DNA from: a virus
Strand: one strand, 5' to 3'
UHGV virus genome: UHGV-1541059
DNA: 47,311 bases
Made by a program: the position numbers and the translations under genes. A model generated the notes under the pieces. That model had not been told where the DNA came from, searched no databases, and was given only the letters and a program-made list of their open reading frames with translations. How positions within the stretch are numbered: position 1 is the stretch's first letter; each line of letters begins with the position of its first letter. Of this stretch, positions 2,461 through 43,949 are shown piece by piece.

Positions 2461-2889
2461 TTACCCCCAGCGTTTTATGAATTCCTCGTTTAATTTCGTA
2501 TCGCCAGACCATTGAACATCATGTTCAGCGCCGAACGAGTAGATCAGCTCGATTAGTTCACTGAATTCTGATTTACTCATCCGGCTGGTTGATGTCCCCA
2601 ATACAACAAAGCCGGATTTATCCAGGTTAGGGACGACGCCATATTTCTTAAGTCCGGCAGTGAATACCGCTTTCCAGTCTTCCGGAGACAGCTTTTTACC
2701 GTACCAATTAACCTGATCGCTAATGTCGGTTAACAGCGCCCAAAGCAACGCGTTTTGACTCAGCGAGCGGGTTTTCTCCTGGATGGTAATTATCAGCGGG
2801 CTTTTGCTATCAGGCTGGATCTCTCTTATCTGCCTGATAGCATTTTCTTTCACGGCGTCGTTTACTATCTCAAATCTAATTTGCCTCAT
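2461..2889 (-). CDS. ninB: NinB (Orf) recombination mediator
   Basis: Sequence pattern ...IQEKTRSLSQNALLWALLTDISDQVNWYGKKLSPEDWKAVFTAGLKK...VVPNL..GFVVLGTSTSRM matches the lambda NinB/Orf family as recalled. Confidence 0.78.
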   Translation of the reverse strand: MRQIRFEIVNDAVKENAIRQIREIQPDSKSPLIITIQEKTRSLSQNALLWALLTDISDQVNWYGKKLSPEDWKAVFTAGLKKYGVVPNLDKSGFVVLGTSTSRMSKSEFSELIELIYSFGAEHDVQWSGDTKLNEEFIKRWG

Positions 2890-3083
2890 AATACACCGTT
2901 GCTATTTTTCCATTGCGCCCGTGCGTACATAATCGCCTGCAAAGAAATTAGCCGCGAGCTTGTCATGAAAGCGCCTTTTAAATATTTCATGTCAACCGTG
3001 ACAGGTTTATCAGGATCATCGCCGCGCATGTATTCAGCAATAGTGCTTAAATCCTCCACGGTTAACTCCAAATCCTTGTTCAT
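2886..3083 (-). CDS. Hypothetical small protein (65 aa)
   Basis: Co-directional ORF, stop/start coupled to neighbours. Confidence 0.4.
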   Translation of the reverse strand: MNKDLELTVEDLSTIAEYMRGDDPDKPVTVDMKYLKGAFMTSSRLISLQAIMYARAQWKNSNGVL

Positions 3084-3092
3084 AATTCCCCC

Positions 3093-3299
3093 TTACACAA
3101 TCCGCATTGTGTTTCGTAATTCCCCACGCAGCGCCCGTAATGCATCGCGCATTGGCACGAAAACACAGTTAAATTTTACGTGTTTATATTTCCGCATTAG
3201 TGGCGGTGTATACACCATTGCGTCGTATACTTCCCACGGATAATAAACACGCGTATCATCAACAAACGTTTCAACTGAATAAAAGATTACTCGTCTCAT
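3093..3299 (-). CDS. Hypothetical small protein (68 aa)
   Basis: Co-directional ORF in early-left operon. Confidence 0.4.
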   Translation of the reverse strand: MRRVIFYSVETFVDDTRVYYPWEVYDAMVYTPPLMRKYKHVKFNCVFVPMRDALRALRGELRNTMRIV

Positions 3300-3853
3300 A
3301 ATTCTAACCCCGTTTCCCCGTTAAGTTTTTCGATCTCAAATACTGGTTTATCCGGTAGCAGTCTGTTATTTTTCCGGTATTCGTTCAGGCGGCTGTCAAA
3401 GTCAAACGCGAGATCATTTGCGTGACCGAAGCGCCCAGGTTTAAACAGTGAGTAAAAATTAAGGCCATGTTTATTGGTATCGATGCAAAGTGTTTCATCC
3501 AGTACCATTAAACGCAGCGTGCGCGAAAGATAATTCCACGGAATACCAGTTTCCGCGCTAATGTCACGCATACGCTTTTTAACGCTGTAGTCACTAAATA
3601 ATGCCGCCACACGATCACGCCGTTGTGCATACAAATATTTAATTCGATACCCCAATAAGCGGCGGCGCGGTCCGAAATATGTATATACACGCTCGACAAT
3701 GCCAGTATCAATCAAGTGTTTAATTGTCTCAGGCAAACATCCGGCTTCGTCATATTCCGCTGATAATCCGGTTTTCTGGCGTAGCTGGTGCATTGTTGCG
3801 ATGCCGTCCAGTTCAAGGATATTGATAACTTTTGTTTCAAGTTCAATGCTCAT
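3296..3853 (-). CDS. Hypothetical protein (about 185 aa)
   Basis: ORF between DnaB and NinB; start set at MSIELETKV (track ORF extends to 3889). Confidence 0.45.
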   Translation of the reverse strand: MSIELETKVINILELDGIATMHQLRQKTGLSAEYDEAGCLPETIKHLIDTGIVERVYTYFGPRRRLLGYRIKYLYAQRRDRVAALFSDYSVKKRMRDISAETGIPWNYLSRTLRLMVLDETLCIDTNKHGLNFYSLFKPGRFGHANDLAFDFDSRLNEYRKNNRLLPDKPVFEIEKLNGETGLEL

Positions 3854-5353: not shown

Positions 5354-5371
5354 TATGGTATAGCCTCCGGT

Positions 5372-8503: not shown

Positions 8504-9151
8504 ATGAAAACAAAATGGTATGACTTAGCAAAGCAGCTCATGCGGGCGCAGGGCATGAGTCAGGATTCACTCGCAGATCTCATGGGGATAACTAAAGGCG
8601 GCCTGTCACACTGGCTTAACGGTCGCCGCGAGCCAAATCTTGAAGATATTGCGCGGATTATGCGGGCGCTTGGGCGTCGTCAGTTCACTGTTACACATGA
8701 TGGTATGGTCATTGATGATTCTGTTTCTAATACACTTCAGGCCGCACCGCCGCGTGATTTAGGTAGTTACCCGGTTATTGACTGGAAGGACACAGTAAAC
8801 AATATGGATGACACAAGGCGATCAGCATTACCACACGTTACGACTAGCGTTATTTGTTCAGATGATAGTTACTGGCTGGTTGCCAAAGGTGAATCAATGA
8901 ACGCGCCGCAGGGGTTAAGCATCCCGGCGGGGACGATGATACTTGTTGACCCGCACGCGCCAGCTATTGACGGCAAACTGGTTATAGCCCAGCTTGAGGA
9001 AGGGCAGATACCGACGTTTAAACAGTTGATTATTGATGGAGGTCAAAGGCTTTTACGTTCGCTCAATCCTCTGTATCCGCCAATCCCTATGAATCCAGAA
9101 TCAAAAATTATAGGCGTGGTGGTTGATGCGAAGATCGTAAACCTGCCATAA
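8504..9151 (+). CDS. cI: CI-like repressor (HTH plus S24 LexA-type autopeptidase domain)
   Basis: N-terminal HTH (MSQDSLADLMGITKGGLSHWLNG), C-terminal S24 motifs (GESM ... DGKLVIAQL ... FKQL). Confidence 0.85.
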   Translation: MKTKWYDLAKQLMRAQGMSQDSLADLMGITKGGLSHWLNGRREPNLEDIARIMRALGRRQFTVTHDGMVIDDSVSNTLQAAPPRDLGSYPVIDWKDTVNNMDDTRRSALPHVTTSVICSDDSYWLVAKGESMNAPQGLSIPAGTMILVDPHAPAIDGKLVIAQLEEGQIPTFKQLIIDGGQRLLRSLNPLYPPIPMNPESKIIGVVVDAKIVNLP

Positions 9152-9260: not shown

Positions 9261-9303
9261 GTATACAAAATGGATTGACTCGATGTTTTACGGGGCGTAT
9301 ATT
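9261..9303 (+). promoter_or_regulatory. Strong sigma70 promoter (pL-like) with the 13-bp motif abutting the -35
   Basis: GTATACAAAATGG-a-TTGACT-17 bp-TATATT. Confidence 0.55.
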
Positions 9304-38053: not shown

Positions 38054-38473
38054 TTATTTGATTCTAACAATATCAATAAAACCGTTACCCAAATCTACAA
38101 TTGCGTGATTTTTTGCACCCGCGCCGCCTTCATTAAAAATTCTTTCCGCGAAAGCAACTTTATTTGCCTTACACTCGTTTGCTATCCTGTTTTTTATTTC
38201 GCTATTATTTTCAAAGACTGCGCCTACAGCGGCCTCGTTTACAAGGCCATAATTAAACCAACGAGCATAAACTGGTTTACCTTCAAATTTTTTATCAATT
38301 GCCTTAAAAAGAATTGCTGGCGCGGCAGGTTCTTTTTTGATCATGTCGTGATATGCGGCTACATGGTTTGCCACTTCTTCACAGTTAATGCTTATGGCCT
38401 CGTTAGCGTTCGCGTTAAATGCGAGTGCGGCAATCACAGTAAGTGCCATTTTTGCTAACCGTTTCATAATCAA
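38054..38473 (-). CDS. Secreted protein, reverse-oriented moron in tail module
   Basis: N-terminal signal peptide MKRLAKMALTVIAALAFNANA; two Cys in mature part; opposite strand to flanking tail genes. Confidence 0.6.
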   Translation of the reverse strand: MIMKRLAKMALTVIAALAFNANANEAISINCEEVANHVAAYHDMIKKEPAAPAILFKAIDKKFEGKPVYARWFNYGLVNEAAVGAVFENNSEIKNRIANECKANKVAFAERIFNEGGAGAKNHAIVDLGNGFIDIVRIK

Positions 38474-38535
38474 CTCCTACCGCTTATTCTAATTTGCTAA
38501 ATGCTTCATTTAACTTAGTTATACACGCATATTGT

Positions 38536-38619
38536 TTATTTTTTAAGTGCTTTTAACATTTCTTCGATGAAGTCCGCATAGCGTTCATGTTCATTGGGGC
38601 GGTAGTTTACGTTTTTCAT
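38536..38619 (-). CDS. 27-aa peptide (MKNVNYRPNEHERYADFIEEMLKALKK) upstream of the secreted-protein gene
   Basis: Strong GGAGG RBS 7-8 nt upstream of ATG on minus strand. Confidence 0.35.
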   Translation of the reverse strand: MKNVNYRPNEHERYADFIEEMLKALKK

Positions 38620-38696
38620 TTTCTTATCCTCCTTCTCTCCCCCCCGGTTAATCCGGCCTTTTAAATCCCTTTGCTCTATCCCTTTCCTTTAGCCTC

Positions 38697-38740
38697 TTTA
38701 TACAAAATGGAGTCGTTACAGTAAAGCCATTTTGTATAAA
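38697..38740. promoter_or_regulatory. Perfect inverted repeat of the recurrent motif; candidate divergent promoters for tape measure (+) and the moron (-)
   Basis: TTTATACAAAATGG-16 nt-CCATTTTGTATAAA; on each strand motif, 1 nt, hexamer, 17 nt, TATAAA. Confidence 0.45.
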
Positions 38741-38777: not shown

Positions 38778-41120
38778 ATGGCTACCAGTGTAGGTACAAT
38801 TTATTACGAAGTTGATGCAAAAACTGGTCAACTTCTCGTTGCACAACGACAGGCAGACCAGGCCTTTGACCGTATAGAGCGCGGCGCAAAACAGGCTGAC
38901 CGCCAGGTAAACACCCTGAAAACATCCATCAAGGCACTGACCAGGGTTATCCATTTGCTAATTGCTGCGGAGGCTGTGCGCCAATTCATGGATATGGCGG
39001 AGCAAGCAAAAATGCTTCGCGTAAAAATCAAAATGCTTACGGGCGATGCGGAGTCCGCCGGACGGGTTTTTGATGGCCTGAAAGCAATATCAAAAGAAAC
39101 AGGCCAAAGCATGAAGGATACCGGGGATCTGTGGCAAGGCTTAGCTATCTCACTGAAGAACACGTCCGCCACTGAAGGGCAATTGCTTAACCTGGTAGGT
39201 ACGATTCAGAAAATGGGGGCGTTGGGCGGCGCGTCAGCGGAGCAGATGTCAAACTCAATGCGTCAATTCCGTCAGTCTATCGACGGTGGCGTGTTGCGTG
39301 CTGAAGAATTCAACAGCCTGTTAGAAAACACCCCGACCATCGTACAGACAATGGCACGCCAGATGGGGTTATCAATGGGCCAATTCCGCGCCGAAATGCT
39401 GGACGGTAAGATCACGGCAGAAAGGATGGTTAACGCAATCCAGGCGGCTACGCAGGAAACAAACGAGAAGTTTGCGCAGTTGCCGCGCACATCCGGCATG
39501 GCCCTGAATGAGCTTAAAGTCGAGGTTATGGGACTTGTTGAGCAATTGGATGATCTTTTCGGTGTATCCGATACGGTTGTTGCTGGTATCGATCTTGTAA
39601 CGAAAGGTGTTAAGGCTTTAGGTGAAGGCGCTGATTTCGCTAAAACCTGCTTTAACACCCTGAAGACGGCTGGTGGCGAATTCATCGACATGTTTGAAGA
39701 TGTCAGAATCAAGGCTGGCGAGGTAGCCGAGAAGATCATCGCAATGGTGACGCCAATCAAGGCACTAATGGATGCCTACAAATGGATGAAGGAGGTCGTA
39801 GGAGAGAAAACCGACGAATATAACAGCAACTACGAGAAGAAATACGGTAAGACTGTTGGCAAGGTCATGCAACTACAGGATGATCTGACCGCAGCAATCC
39901 AGGCTACAGAAGAAGCAAGGAAAAATGAACAGAATGCCGCCAATGACGGAGCGATTACCGGATTCGACAAGCCAGTAGACAAACCGAAAAAACAGAAAAA
40001 AGAGAAGAAATCTGAAGCTGATCGTCTTGGCGATAAAGGTATAAGCGTTTCTGACCAGTACAACAAAGACGCCGCCGCTATGCGCAAAGCGTTAGAGAAC
40101 GGCAAGGCCATTGATGCTGCATTCGCCCAGGGTAAAATCACTCTCCTTGAGTACCGCGCCGCGCAAAAAGGGATAGGTAAGGAACTGAAGGAAGAATTAG
40201 CGCAAATTCCGGTAGATGAATTGCGTGATAAATGGGCGCAAATAGTAAGCCCGATGGATCAGCTTAAAGGCGAGGTTGACCCTATTCAGCAGGCACAAAA
40301 TGAATGGGCCGTTCGTAAGCAAATGCTTATCGACCTGGGAGCTACCGAAGCGCAACAGAAACAGGAATTGTTAGCCTATGAGCAACAGATCCGCGATCTG
40401 AAGTGGGAGCAGTGGCAAGCGCAAAGCGACACTAACGGCCTGATCGGTGATTGCGTTAATGGCCTTAAAGGTGGTATGAGCAATGCACTTGTTGGCCTGT
40501 TAAACGGTACTCAATCATTAAGCGATGTTTTTGCTAACTTAGGTAGCAATATCCTCGGCAATATTGGTAGCAGACTTTCAGATATAGCCGCTGACTGGAT
40601 AGCAGATCAAATCATGATGGAGACACAAAGCAAGGCCACGCAAGCAAGTACAACGGCGGGCGCGGTAGCGGCGCAAGGCCAGATTGCTGCGGCGGCGGCC
40701 CCGGCGGCGGCGGCAACAGCGGCGTCAACTGGCGGCGCATGGGCTGCGGCTGGTTCTGCGGCACTCACTGCGATCATGTCGCTGGCTACGTCAATTTTCG
40801 GCGGTGGTCGCTTTAATGGTGGTAGCGTTATTGGTGGCAATATGTACCGCGTAGGGGAACACAACAGGCCGGAGCTATTCCAGACATCTAACGGAAATCA
40901 ATATATGATCCCAGGCGAGAATGGCAGGGTTATTCCTGGGCGTGATATTGGCGGTGGCGGCGGCATTAGTATGCCTGTCAATATCAACATTCAGACCACA
41001 AACGGATTTAGCGACGAAGACAGTCGCAGACTTGAGCAAACAATGGAACGTGTAGCAATGAAGATGATAACAAGGGAATCACAAAGACCTGGAGGAATAT
41101 TGCAACCGCGCCGCAAATAA
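38778..41120 (+). CDS. Tail tape measure protein
   Basis: 780 aa, coiled-coil rich, Ala/Gly-rich hydrophobic segment near C-terminus; position. Confidence 0.85.
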   Translation: MATSVGTIYYEVDAKTGQLLVAQRQADQAFDRIERGAKQADRQVNTLKTSIKALTRVIHLLIAAEAVRQFMDMAEQAKMLRVKIKMLTGDAESAGRVFDGLKAISKETGQSMKDTGDLWQGLAISLKNTSATEGQLLNLVGTIQKMGALGGASAEQMSNSMRQFRQSIDGGVLRAEEFNSLLENTPTIVQTMARQMGLSMGQFRAEMLDGKITAERMVNAIQAATQETNEKFAQLPRTSGMALNELKVEVMGLVEQLDDLFGVSDTVVAGIDLVTKGVKALGEGADFAKTCFNTLKTAGGEFIDMFEDVRIKAGEVAEKIIAMVTPIKALMDAYKWMKEVVGEKTDEYNSNYEKKYGKTVGKVMQLQDDLTAAIQATEEARKNEQNAANDGAITGFDKPVDKPKKQKKEKKSEADRLGDKGISVSDQYNKDAAAMRKALENGKAIDAAFAQGKITLLEYRAAQKGIGKELKEELAQIPVDELRDKWAQIVSPMDQLKGEVDPIQQAQNEWAVRKQMLIDLGATEAQQKQELLAYEQQIRDLKWEQWQAQSDTNGLIGDCVNGLKGGMSNALVGLLNGTQSLSDVFANLGSNILGNIGSRLSDIAADWIADQIMMETQSKATQASTTAGAVAAQGQIAAAAAPAAAATAASTGGAWAAAGSAALTAIMSLATSIFGGGRFNGGSVIGGNMYRVGEHNRPELFQTSNGNQYMIPGENGRVIPGRDIGGGGGISMPVNINIQTTNGFSDEDSRRLEQTMERVAMKMITRESQRPGGILQPRRK

Positions 41121-41126
41121 ACGAAA

Positions 41127-41156
41127 CCCCGGTACAATGCCGGGGTTATCTTTTAG
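41127..41156. terminator. Bidirectional intrinsic terminator after tape measure gene
   Basis: CCCCGG-tacaatg-CCGGGG followed by TTATCTTTTAGTT; also downstream of minus-strand gene 41153-41329. Confidence 0.6.
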
Positions 41157-41329
41157 TTATTCTCAAAACTTGTATATCCTCTTTCAATTTTCCCGCCTCT
41201 TACACTTCTTGCAAATACTGCATCATTATGTTTGAAAAATGGTTCAGTATATGTGTCTCCTTTACTATCCATCCATTTCACGATCCAGGCTATACGTTTT
41301 ACATTGCTTTTATTTGCCGGGTTTTTCAT
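41153..41329 (-). CDS. Hypothetical 58-aa protein (reverse-oriented cassette gene 3)
   Basis: GGAGGAAAATAAA-ATG on minus strand; MKNPANKSNVKRIAWIVKWMDSKGDTYTEPFF... Confidence 0.4.
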   Translation of the reverse strand: MKNPANKSNVKRIAWIVKWMDSKGDTYTEPFFKHNDAVFARSVRGGKIERGYTSFENN

Positions 41330-41447
41330 TTTATTTTCCTCCGCAAATTACAATCTTCCGTTTCTGGCTATATAGCTGCGAGAAAACATTACCAACCAAA
41401 TATTCCAGATCTCCCTCCAGGTGAATTTATCGTCCTCCATACCCACC

Positions 41448-41702
41448 TCACTTATGGCAACCGCGAACGCCAGACAATTCATTGAATTTATGGTGTTCAA
41501 CAATCACCCACTCTTTCAGATCCTGGCTATAGACTCGCCAGTCTAAATTGGCGCGGAAGGCGTAGCCGTAACCGTCTTTCAATTTTTTGGGTGACGCATT
41601 CTTGTTTAAAAACGCGTTCAAAAGTTCCTTTGCTTTTTTGACTACATGTCCCGGCGCGTTTTTCTGTGCTTTCAGATTTTTGTCAATCGCTACCAGTTTC
41701 AT
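41448..41702 (-). CDS. Hypothetical 84-aa basic protein (reverse-oriented cassette gene 2)
   Basis: GGGGTGAG RBS; ...GYGYAFRANLDWRVYSQDLKEWVIVEHHKFN... Confidence 0.5.
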   Translation of the reverse strand: MKLVAIDKNLKAQKNAPGHVVKKAKELLNAFLNKNASPKKLKDGYGYAFRANLDWRVYSQDLKEWVIVEHHKFNELSGVRGCHK

Positions 41703-41719
41703 AACTCACCCCATCATCC

Positions 41720-41875
41720 TTAGTTAAGTGCCTTCAGGAAGAAGTCCCGGTATTCATCTTCTTTTGCATTCATCATGAATTGACCGTATTTGAATGCGTC
41801 GTCGAAACCCTTAACGATTGCTATTTCCACTTGTTCGAATGCGTTGTTTAGCATTACCACTACATAGCGTTTCAT
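41720..41875 (-). CDS. Hypothetical 51-aa protein (reverse-oriented cassette gene 1)
   Basis: GGAGG RBS then ATG; MKRYVVVMLNNAFEQVEIAIVKGFDDAFKYGQ... Confidence 0.45.
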   Translation of the reverse strand: MKRYVVVMLNNAFEQVEIAIVKGFDDAFKYGQFMMNAKEDEYRDFFLKALN

Positions 41876-41946
41876 TTTGGGCCTCCTTCGTTGGTACTGC
41901 TTTTCTTCTTGCTTTCTGTATACATCTTGTTGCGAACTATGTGAAG

Positions 41947-41969
41947 CCATTTTGTAAACTAGCTATAAT
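41947..41969 (-). promoter_or_regulatory. Motif copy plus candidate promoter for the 41875-41153 minus-strand cassette
   Basis: Minus strand: GTTTACAAAATGG-c-TTCACA-17 nt-TATACA. Confidence 0.4.
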
Positions 41970-42043
41970 CATTGTGATGAAGATCTCATTTTTCGCGTAG
42001 AAGCGCGTAAATATATATACAAAATGTAACTTATGGGGGTTTT

Positions 42044-42397
42044 ATGCCGGAAGTTTTCAGATGGACGCCGCAAAGAAGCTACAGCGTGACCAGGGAGCCA
42101 AACGTATCTGTCATTAAACTTGGTGATGGGTATGAACAACGCCAGGCGAAAGGGATTAACACATTACTTGATAGTTACACCCTGGTTTTTAAAGGCAGTA
42201 GTGCAGGATGCGGCGATGGTGGGAATGTAGCGATCCAGGCGGAAGCATTCTTGAGGGCGCGCGGCGCTGTCGAGGCTTTTTACTGGTCGCCGTCGATGGA
42301 TAACGTGCAAAGGCTTTTTGTTTGCCGCCGATGGAGCATGACTAAAGACGGGTCTTTGTACACGCTAAACGCAACGTTTGAGCAGGTCGTCAGATGA
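42044..42397 (+). CDS. M: Minor tail protein M
   Basis: FRW...GDGYEQR...FEQVV matches lambda gpM as recalled; 117 aa. Confidence 0.75.
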   Translation: MPEVFRWTPQRSYSVTREPNVSVIKLGDGYEQRQAKGINTLLDSYTLVFKGSSAGCGDGGNVAIQAEAFLRARGAVEAFYWSPSMDNVQRLFVCRRWSMTKDGSLYTLNATFEQVVR

Positions 42398-42600: not shown

Positions 42601-42628
42601 CCCCGCGCGAAGCGGGGTTATTATTATT
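42601..42628. terminator. Intrinsic terminator (bidirectional) between the M operon and the reverse cassette
   Basis: CCCCGCG-cgaa-GCGGGG followed by TTATTATTATT. Confidence 0.6.
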
Positions 42629-42740
42629 CCATTTCCATTAATGCTATATTTTCCGCTATCGTTTTCCAGTCCAGATTTACAGCATGAACACCAAATACTA
42701 TCAATCCCATTGCGATTAGTGCTAAAACTTCGATTTTCAT
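42624..42740 (-). CDS. 38-aa membrane peptide (MKIEVLALIAMGLIVFGVHAVNLDWKTIAENIALMEME)
   Basis: GAGG RBS on minus strand; hydrophobic helix; last gene of reverse cassette. Confidence 0.35.
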   Translation of the reverse strand: MKIEVLALIAMGLIVFGVHAVNLDWKTIAENIALMEME

Positions 42741-42831
42741 AATCAACCTCACTTAATTAAGAAAGGCATAAACGATGGCAATCGCGCCAGCCACTACCAA
42801 AACATTTCGATCACTTCGTCTACTTTATTGA

Positions 42832-43035
42832 TTAAGGTAACTCCACTTCGTTAAATGTAACAAGCACCCCTTGATTTTCTTTATTTATAATTATGAAGGC
42901 ATTAATTGAAGGCAGACATCTTTCCACGCGGTAAACGTCACCAATATCTAAACTGTAATATTCTGTTAATTCTCTATTGTTCCCTTTAGCAAAACCCGTA
43001 AACCTAACCATTTTTTGACCGTCGTACTTTAACAT
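42832..43035 (-). CDS. Hypothetical 67-aa protein (reverse cassette)
   Basis: Minus-strand ORF coupled to upstream gene. Confidence 0.45.
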   Translation of the reverse strand: MLKYDGQKMVRFTGFAKGNNRELTEYYSLDIGDVYRVERCLPSINAFIIINKENQGVLVTFNEVELP

Positions 43036-43043
43036 ATACAGTC

Positions 43044-43292
43044 CTATAGGTTATCACGCAGATAATTAACGCCTTTGTCAGTGACGAATGAGTGATTAAC
43101 CTGGTTTTCATCCGTCATGATGATGAATAACTTTTCCTGTAGGTATTTCGCTTTTGGGTACAGCGTTAAACAGACCTGGTACAGTATCCCGCGCTCAATC
43201 AGCAAATCAATAAATTCGTGCTCATGATAACCGACGAGGCGGGCGGCTTGTTTCAACGTGTACACATAATCGCCGTGATTGCGCCGCCCCAT
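43044..43292 (-). CDS. Hypothetical 82-aa protein, possible HTH (reverse cassette)
   Basis: YTLKQAARLVGYHEHEFIDLLIERGIL resembles a DNA-binding helix-turn-helix. Confidence 0.45.
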   Translation of the reverse strand: MGRRNHGDYVYTLKQAARLVGYHEHEFIDLLIERGILYQVCLTLYPKAKYLQEKLFIIMTDENQVNHSFVTDKGVNYLRDNL

Positions 43293-43301
43293 GTTGCCGC
43301 C

Positions 43302-43652
43302 TTATTTATCGAATGCGCCCAGGTTATCTATGCAGAAGTCTTTCGCAGCTTTTTCGTATTCGCGTTTTGCTTGCGGATCGTCTGCCGGGAAACCTTTTGC
43401 GTGTATTTCACCAGGGCAAGACTGATCCATAGAGTCTGCAAATTCAACATTGACGTTAAAGTTAATATCTTTCGGGTTCATCTCTTCCACCTTATCCGGC
43501 ACTTGCACCGGAGTAATATCAAAATCACGAGCGTTAGACCAACAGCGAAGTAACTCACGACCTTCATCACGCGCTGCGACGTATGTGTCGAACAGGCCCA
43601 TGCGCTCCCATTCACATTTATCAGTCCATATTTCTAAACTATATTTTTGCAT
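43302..43652 (-). CDS. Hypothetical 116-aa acidic protein (reverse cassette)
   Basis: Minus-strand ORF; no recognisable motif. Confidence 0.5.
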   Translation of the reverse strand: MQKYSLEIWTDKCEWERMGLFDTYVAARDEGRELLRCWSNARDFDITPVQVPDKVEEMNPKDINFNVNVEFADSMDQSCPGEIHAKGFPADDPQAKREYEKAAKDFCIDNLGAFDK

Positions 43653-43664
43653 TTTGTTAAACCA

Positions 43665-43820
43665 TCATTTGACAGGTTCGAGTCTGTATCCCAAAACTCT
43701 TTCGTCTTCAGCGAGTAAGAGCGCGTCAGTAAGTGCATCGCCTTCATCTTTATACAGGGCAACAGTCATTTCCCTGCCGTCTGTCAGAAATACCTTCAAC
43801 CTCCACACCTTATCAGCCAT
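43665..43820 (-). CDS. Hypothetical 51-aa protein, first gene of reverse cassette
   Basis: GGAGGTGTGAG-ATG on minus strand; motif copy GTTAACAAAATGG immediately upstream (43835-43847); track ORF extends to 43895. Confidence 0.45.
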   Translation of the reverse strand: MADKVWRLKVFLTDGREMTVALYKDEGDALTDALLLAEDERVLGYRLEPVK

Positions 43821-43949
43821 CTCACACCTCCGCGCCATTTTGTTAACTGTGCTTCCGTTTGAGTAAAATATACATATTGTATAAACCGTGATCAATCCAT
43901 TATGGTATGATTTAGCGTGACGCAGATCACAAAATCAGAAGGTGAGAAA

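Follow-up and report, generated by a model that had tools for sequence, protein, structure and literature searches.

Gene content and promoter of the reverse cassette

The DNA analysed was a stretch of 47,311 nucleotides (nt) of the virus genome UHGV-1541059, referred to here as the window. It represents a temperate siphovirus and falls into the mEp021 group ("mEpimmI"), which comprises Nus-dependent non-lambdoid coliphages of human gut origin (PMC11893012). Between the tape-measure stop codon (41120) and the gpM-like gene (42044), the window carries a cassette of small genes on the minus strand. The original prediction had placed three open reading frames (ORFs) with ribosome-binding sites (RBSs) here, and all three were found in place. 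The named ORFs are real, and a fourth gene, p30, had been overlooked; it is annotated in Escherichia phage MagusPhagus and in mEp010.

The first gene, p51 (41720-41875, minus strand), encodes a mildly acidic protein of 51 amino acids (aa), with the RBS AGGAGG (41882-41887) 6 nt ahead of its ATG. The second gene, p84 (41448-41702, minus strand), encodes a strongly basic protein of 84 aa with a predicted toxin fold and has GGGGTGAG ahead of its ATG. Only 17 nt separate the p51 stop from the p84 start, and one promoter and one terminator are common to both genes. They are followed on the same strand by p30 (41348-41440; MEDDKFTWREIWNIWLVMFSRSYIARNGRL), whose ATG lies 7 nt past the p84 stop and whose product is a Trp-rich protein of 30 aa, and by p58 (41153-41329), which encodes a basic orphan protein of 58 aa and has the RBS GGAGG (41338-41342) 8 nt ahead of its ATG. 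A putative bidirectional intrinsic terminator (41125-41147, both strands), with a terminator-like hairpin called each way, is common to the cassette and its left neighbour, the tape-measure gene. Both flanking genes belong to the late operon on the plus strand. The left one is the tape-measure protein gene (38778-41120; 780-aa ORF), annotated as such in MagusPhagus and in RefSeq prophages, and the right one is the gpM-like gene (42044-42397; 117-aa ORF), annotated as a minor tail protein. The GC content is approximately 0.40 across the cassette versus 0.47-0.57 in the adjoining tail genes, and the GC skew reverses and becomes negative over the cassette. The Rfam scan of the region returned no family, with one sub-threshold match to an archaeal small nucleolar RNA.

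The queried region showed 99.1% identity to Escherichia phage MagusPhagus and 79-87% identity to mEp010, mEp013, mEp044, mEp554, mEp515, and mEp021. It was found in 35 of 5,426 complete E. coli genomes, each time as a single chromosomal copy; in nearly all of them, the annotated neighbours are a tape-measure gene on one side and a phage tail gene on the other. For the comparative analysis, the window was combined with 49 related loci, of which 5 came from annotated records and 44 from IMG/VR, giving a set of 50. Selection was measured as the pairwise Nei-Gojobori ratio of non-synonymous to synonymous substitution rates (dN/dS) over the distinct alleles, 20-36 per gene. The dN/dS was 0.075 for p51 (27 alleles), 0.085 for p84 (36 alleles), 0.037 for p30 (23 alleles), and 0.13 for p58 (20 alleles). 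Judged by these substitution patterns, all four minus-strand frames are real genes under strong purifying selection.

That the ORFs encode tail-assembly or structural accessory proteins, or are chance ORFs on the non-coding strand in a spacer of the late operon, is therefore hardly credible. Their location within the tail gene cluster is the sole support for it. Against it stand the selection on the four frames, the opposite orientation with its own promoter and terminator, and the related phages in which the tape-measure gene runs directly up to gpM and nothing comparable is inserted. Mass spectrometry of the mEp021 virion gave 16 structural proteins, and the accessible part of that report mentions no cassette protein (PMC11893012).

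The string GTTTACAAAATGG-c-TTCACA-17-TATACA is located at 41959..41917 on the minus strand. The 13-bp element GTTTACAAAATGG (41947..41959, minus strand) is an exact match, lies 1 nt upstream of the -35-like hexamer, and is kept at this place in related loci. The -35-like hexamer TTCACA (41940..41945, minus strand) agrees with the consensus at 5/6 positions. The -10-like hexamer TATACA (41917..41922, minus strand) follows after 17 nt and is TATATA in many relatives. The cassette site was not called in the consensus promoter scan because its -10 lacks the final T. Across 34 distinct upstream regions, conservation is seen in both hexamers and in the 13-mer but not in the freely varying 17-nt spacer, as would be expected for a working promoter. 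On this comparison, one conserved sigma-70-like promoter precedes the cassette. The motif-promoter arrangement proposed earlier thus holds as a string with conserved hexamers. It is weakened by the imperfect -10, the silent scan, and the recurrence of the geometry at only about 5 of 19 motif sites.

The 76-aa version of the p51 ORF begins at an ATG within the 13-mer, that is, within the promoter; gene callers therefore often lengthen p51 to 68 or 76 aa. The 76-aa form appears to be an artefact, and the 68- and 76-aa public calls (including P0015 and P0016) are likely artefacts as well. A 40-aa plus-strand ORF annotated in MagusPhagus over the cassette promoter (window 41877-41999) is also a likely annotation artefact.

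The 13-mer is a genome-wide element. The window contains 15 sites with at most 2 mismatches versus 1.6 expected, and 15 was reached in 0 of 100 shuffles. The layout of 13-mer, 1-2 nt, -35, 16-17 nt, and -10 is good at 9261, 22538, 38698, 38727, and 41947. The copy at 9261 precedes a strong promoter (TTGACT-17-TATATT) upstream of an N-like antiterminator gene, and a further copy lies in a cI/cro-like intergenic region with an imperfect inverted partner. In the form GT(T/A)TACAAAATGG, the 13-mer occurs approximately 15-19 times in the window, mainly between genes (1429, 5370, 6507, 8418, 9261, 13371, 16864/16932, 22538, 38698/38727, 41947, 42015, and 43835). Some copies are inverted pairs approximately 16-17 bp apart (22538; 38698/38727), in which each copy gives the -10 of the opposite promoter (TGTATAA). 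At 5370, 6507, 42015, and 43835, the 13-mer directly adjoins an RBS. The 13-mer was also considered as an operator of the CI-like repressor (8504-9151; HTH_3 and Peptidase_S24 domains). This role was not established: the element is non-palindromic, and the repeats TGCAAGT and TTGACTCG/CGAGTCAA also occupy the immunity promoters.

Family and predicted fold of p84

No family had been recognised for the 84-aa protein, and a remote homology search had been suggested. A match of 32.1 bits over residues 19-74 (E = 1.2e-7), higher than the curated gathering threshold of 24.4, places p84 in the Pfam family PF24732 (ParE_like). All 17 aligned members of the p84 family matched PF24732 only, and none matched the classical ParE, RelE, or YoeB models of Pfam. 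The RefSeq pipeline names p84 homologues "ParE family toxin-like protein", so the family is already known by name in both resources. Literature searches on PF24732 and on "ParE family toxin-like" returned no papers.

The AlphaFold2 model of p84, built from 17 sequences, had a mean predicted local distance difference test score (pLDDT) of 85.7. It comprises an N-terminal β-hairpin, a long helix (residues 18-32), three strands, and a short helix. The predicted fold matches that of the toxins RelE, YoeB, HigB, and ParE, whose superfamily is characterised by a compact α/β structure of approximately 80-100 aa with an N-terminal helical segment on a three- to four-stranded antiparallel sheet. According to this model, p84 has a toxin fold of the RelE/ParE superfamily, and we consider the fold assignment sound. 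Searches of the PDB sequences with the single p84 sequence and with its profile gave nothing significant, the best match being YoeB (E = 0.12). In the alignment made with the family profile, PkKL...wRL of the p84 family falls on KPEKL...HRLVY of YoeB. Lys40 and Arg56 are invariant across the p84 family, and Arg56 aligns to the Arg of the YoeB "HRLVY" segment, which slightly favours a nuclease as the activity of p84. The general base of YoeB is a Glu; the aligned residue of p84 is a Lys.

When 1.84 billion representative proteins were searched exhaustively with a profile of the p84 family, only 12 hits were obtained, and no p84 relative was encoded on the plasmids searched. By these searches, the p84 family is small and phage-bound. 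A 425-aa protein (P0079) matches the β-sheet segment of p84 (profile positions 50-74) in four separate stretches and may be a repeat protein composed of this motif.

The type II toxins of the RelE/ParE group (YoeB-YefM, RelBE, HigBA, YafQ-DinJ, and ParDE) are similar to p84 in size, basicity, and the long helix on a three-stranded antiparallel sheet, and p84 likewise has a small upstream partner gene in its operon. It differs from them in forming a separate sequence family matching PF24732 only, in having a partner without a classical antitoxin domain, and in persisting partnerless in one lineage.

p51 and the toxin-partner reading

The p51 protein matched phrog_29810, a PHROG without assigned function. 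AlphaFold2 predicted a β-β-α-β arrangement with a pLDDT of 90.6 for the best model, although the five models span 50.8-90.6. No ribbon-helix-helix, Phd/YefM, helix-turn-helix, or AbrB domain was found in p51. Its profile gave nothing relevant among the PDB sequences, with one spurious match to CagT. The association of p51 with p84 is close. Intact p51 adjoins p84 in 47 of the 50 loci, and p84 follows p51 in 43 of 43 contigs retrieved with p51, which was seen nowhere else. The 51-aa first gene of a neighbouring cassette (43668-43820) was considered as a paralogue of p51 and rejected, as BLASTP gave no alignment and hhalign a probability of 0.2%.

We propose, with a probability of roughly 0.45, that the cassette, as an autonomous accessory operon in reverse orientation, is a kind of moron inserted at the tape-measure/gpM junction and has a non-canonical toxin-partner core formed by p51 and p84. 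p84 would be a growth-arresting effector, either a YoeB/RelE-like nuclease with ribosome-dependent action on mRNA or a gyrase poison of the ParE type. p51 would be made first, from the stronger RBS, as the cognate co-expressed partner of p84, and would most likely temper p84 through direct binding. The pair would not be a canonical type II system: p51 carries no DNA-binding domain, its predicted structure is compact and not disordered, its sequence shows no co-variation with that of p84, and its loss is tolerated. The cassette is antisense to a late operon that should depend on the Q-type antiterminator encoded by the same phage (18401-19123), and late transcription should therefore oppose it. 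Late read-through of the terminator at 41125-41147 would then silence the cassette during virion production. A comparable arrangement has been demonstrated experimentally in phi80, where taiEcA opposes the Q-dependent late transcript in a non-contiguous operon and its expression is lowered (PMC11364771). The role of the module probably lies in phage-host or phage-phage conflict, such as abortive infection, exclusion, or host shut-off.

Several results weigh against this proposal. p51 had no hit in Pfam, NCBIfam, or PADLOC, whether to antitoxins or to DNA-binding families, and comparison of its predicted fold returned only generic α/β folds and no antitoxin fold. NCBIfam and PADLOC (PADLOC-DB v2.0.0, 2023, 5027 models) gave zero matches for any cassette protein. 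The alleles of p51 and p84 are freely shuffled among the loci and do not co-vary (Mantel r = 0.116, p = 0.12); p84 proteins as much as 40% different occur beside identical p51 proteins. Two loci (L028 and L035) have a common clean deletion of p51, so that an intact p84 stands directly behind the same promoter. The two loci are now 7.5% apart, with 7 synonymous and 2 non-synonymous codon changes between their p84 genes; p84 is therefore tolerated, and stays constrained, where p51 is missing. At a third locus, in a complete E. coli genome (L004), a 1-nt deletion ends p51 after five codons; re-initiation at Met8 is conceivable there. No locus lacks both p51 and p30 (0/50), which is not statistically meaningful given only two independent losses. 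In contrast to the mobile toxin-antitoxin cassettes that are typical, the module was never seen on plasmids or outside this one locus. Two further points come from the distant relatives of p84. None of the ten contexts examined has a recognisable antitoxin gene beside the PF24732 gene, and these genes sit in co-directional arrays of small early genes in lytic or T7-like phages.

The earlier reading of the first two genes as a toxin-antitoxin-like pair is thus partly supported. As in type II systems, two adjacent co-directional small genes share one operon and one of them belongs to a toxin family: p84 is basic with a toxin fold, and the small acidic gene lies 17 nt upstream. This toxin-like half holds. 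The antitoxin half is doubtful, since p51 shows neither of the usual marks of an antitoxin (a DNA-binding domain and/or a disordered tail), p84 does occur without it, and the two do not co-evolve.

In a classical type II addiction module, a labile and essential p51 antitoxin would bind p84 and autoregulate the promoter, and loss of the module or of the whole prophage would kill the cell and so stabilise the prophage. The gene order, the sizes, the opposite charges of the two proteins, and the stronger first RBS all fit such a module, as does the toxin-superfamily fold of p84. Addiction could also account for both the near-universal co-occurrence and the fixation in the lineage. We nevertheless consider it unlikely. 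Besides the missing antitoxin signature and the predicted compactness of p51, the upstream 13-mer is a genome-wide element and not a module-specific operator, a lineage without p51 retains a constrained p84, p51 and p84 do not co-vary, and the module is confined to a single locus and absent from plasmids, hence not mobile. The PaaR2-PaaA2-ParE2 system, known from prophages of E. coli O157:H7, has an intrinsically disordered PaaA2, and its regulator is encoded by a gene of its own. The present cassette differs from that system (PDB hit 5czf), as p51 is predicted to be a compact β-β-α-β protein, no regulator gene is present, and no sequence similarity was found.

The distant PF24732 phage proteins show 27-37% identity to p84 over approximately 60-70 residues. 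The ten contexts were those of Sortsne, OS31, phiKp_21, and the contigs with P0071, P0074, P0075, P0076, P0077, P0078, and P0080. ParB-like genes, a T7 gp0.4-like gene, and the gene of a T7-type RNA polymerase are among the neighbours, and jumbo phages are also represented. PF24732 proteins of Sortsne, Kc237, vB_KpnS_IME279, vB_SspS_OS31 ("HigB-like protein"), and jumbo phages belong to the same Pfam family as p84. Unlike p84, these genes are without a p51-like neighbour and in many cases overlap the gene upstream of them, ParB-like or other, and their products lack the C-terminal GVxGxHK tail of p84, with the exception of P0071, in which the tail is kept. The PF24732 gene overlaps the 3'-end of an upstream ParB-like/HTH_ParB gene in two unrelated contexts, Serratia phage OS31 (L051) and the contigs with P0078 (L104-L106), hinting at a recurrent association of ParB-like and ParE_like genes in phages.

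The early-region position of these relatives speaks for a further explanation, in which p84 is an antitoxin-free early lytic effector for host take-over or anti-defence, expressed from an immunity-type promoter, and p51, p30, and p58 are unrelated passengers of the operon. The 13-mer geometry ahead of the N-like gene promoter (9261), the copy in the cI/cro-like intergenic region, and the persistence of p84 without p51 agree with it. As the 13-mer is common to the N-like gene promoter, the cassette may be an early lytic rather than a lysogenic unit. p51, however, occurs only ahead of p84, and their junction is kept in 47 of 50 loci despite the shuffling of alleles and cargo. Reverse orientation, an own terminator, and low GC content are the usual marks of morons expressed in lysogens. 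We therefore regard this explanation as rather unlikely.

A related view, to which we also give a low probability, takes PF24732 as a phage-specific branch of the RelE/ParE superfamily without a dedicated antitoxin, which would serve early host shut-off in lytic phages. The mEp021 copy would be safe through its transcription architecture, and p51 or the translationally coupled p30 would represent a new type of modulator and not an antitoxin. Here, the 13-bp element common to the immunity-region promoters would allow the prophage repressor or another phage regulator to gate p84, and the position antisense to the Q-dependent late operon would turn p84 off when the lytic cycle reaches its late stage.

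Should p84 prove to be an active toxin, the proposed toxin-partner core would be a RelE/ParE-type module with an undescribed partner family that is compact, losable, and without a DNA-binding domain. It would be fixed at one site in a prevalent human-gut coliphage group rather than hopping between replicons. Lysogens of mEp021 and a repressor plasmid exist (PMC11893012). The module would give a tractable system for the safe carriage of toxin-fold genes by temperate phages, for the role of PF24732 proteins in many lytic enterobacterial phages, and for convergent late transcription as an off-switch of reverse cassettes in late operons. If p84 is non-toxic, the cassette would be an ordinary moron with a misleading family name. 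In the literature searched, the p51 partner, the fixed location, and the architecture are undescribed, and the cassette goes unmentioned in the paper on the mEpimmI phages and in its supplements (PMC11893012).

The tape-measure/gpM junction and its cargo

The junction was surveyed in IMG/VR contigs anchored on gpM and split by gpM identity. In contigs with gpM at least 83% identical, p84 lies between the tape-measure gene and gpM in 31 of 31, and the gap between these genes is 681-1393 bp where measurable. Where gpM identity was 64-68%, p84 was found in 0 of 49 contigs. Direct contact of the tape-measure gene with gpM (-1 to 8 bp) was seen in 18 of 48 related contigs, and the others of the 64-68% group hold other short inserts. 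As the junction is abutting or differently filled in relatives, it is a moron hot spot, and the comparison suggests that other small morons were recurrently inserted at the same place in related groups. The gap classes of the 64-68% contigs (L138-L186) were -1 to 8 bp, approximately 292-348 bp, and 491 bp, with single cases of 165 bp and 1620 bp.

The cassette agrees with a moron in the sense of Hendrix and Juhala: it is extra DNA between otherwise abutting genes, with its own promoter, its own terminator, and a deviant composition. It is atypical in that the p51-p84 core is fixed rather than sporadic (31/31 contigs). Across the loci compared, the pair is fixed in the mEp021-group lineage, and the genes after p84 are exchangeable.

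HK97 gp15, JBD26 Tab/anti-Tab, and phi80 TaiEcA/AtiEcA are likewise independent transcription units among virion genes. The cassette might accordingly be a superinfection-exclusion or virion-assembly defence with self-immunity, directed at the tape-measure or tail proteins of incoming phages and not at host growth. It adjoins the tape-measure gene inside the late operon, as in those systems (PMC10884400, PMC11364771), and its proteins are small; Tab has 83 residues and, according to its authors, is similar to no known domain (PMC10884400). TaiEcA, at 26 kDa, is far above any cassette protein (PMC11364771). No PADLOC-DB match was found, in a library that may predate some of these systems. The cassette is set apart from the three systems by their descriptions and by PADLOC only, and the RelE/ParE fold of p84 points to an enzymatic or poisoning mechanism, suggesting a toxin rather than assembly interference. 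We consider such a defence very unlikely.

The gene content varied after p84. Of the 50 loci, 17 carry p51, p84, p30, and p58, another 17 carry p51 and p84 only, 9 carry p51, p84, and p30, 4 carry p51, p84, and p58, and 3 carry p84, p30, and p58 without an intact p51. Intact p30 was present in 29/50 loci and p58 in 24/50, with homologues of p58 in E. coli prophages only. The 58-aa gene had been counted with the toxin-type set; it is variable cargo outside the conserved pair, with no link to toxicity. Its family matches were all sub-threshold and were not used (Phage_ORF5, 17 bits versus 27; phrog_1670 "DNA binding protein", E = 0.007). After p84, mEp021 carries a 157-aa ORF and a gene for a zinc-ribbon protein, mEp515 (H44) and E. 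coli E21845/O/A have an HNH endonuclease, and one further locus (L060) encodes a 61-aa protein with a 95-aa membrane protein. From these replacements, the slot downstream of p84 is seen to be a site of cargo exchange. At L005, the HNH gene (2706-3188) overlaps the 3'-end of p84 (3176-3430) by 13 nt and replaces p30/p58 directly after p84, and a p30 homologue persists further downstream.

The window contains two other reverse-oriented units among the tail genes. A second cassette (42624-43847, minus strand) lies between the gpM-adjacent ORF and gpL and shows the same GC dip. Its first gene (43668-43820) encodes 51 aa, and the others are genes of 116 aa, of 82 aa with a KilAC antirepressor domain (43044-43292), and of 67 aa, together with a hydrophobic ORF of 42 aa. 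The 13-mer lies immediately ahead of its first RBS, and its leader equals p51 in length without detectable homology. Just upstream of the tape-measure gene, a lone reverse gene of 139 aa (38054-38739) matched no Pfam or PHROG family. It lies behind overlapping divergent promoter-like sites formed by two inverted 13-mers (38698, plus strand; 38727, minus strand), of which the plus-strand site at 38698 would restart transcription into the tape-measure gene.

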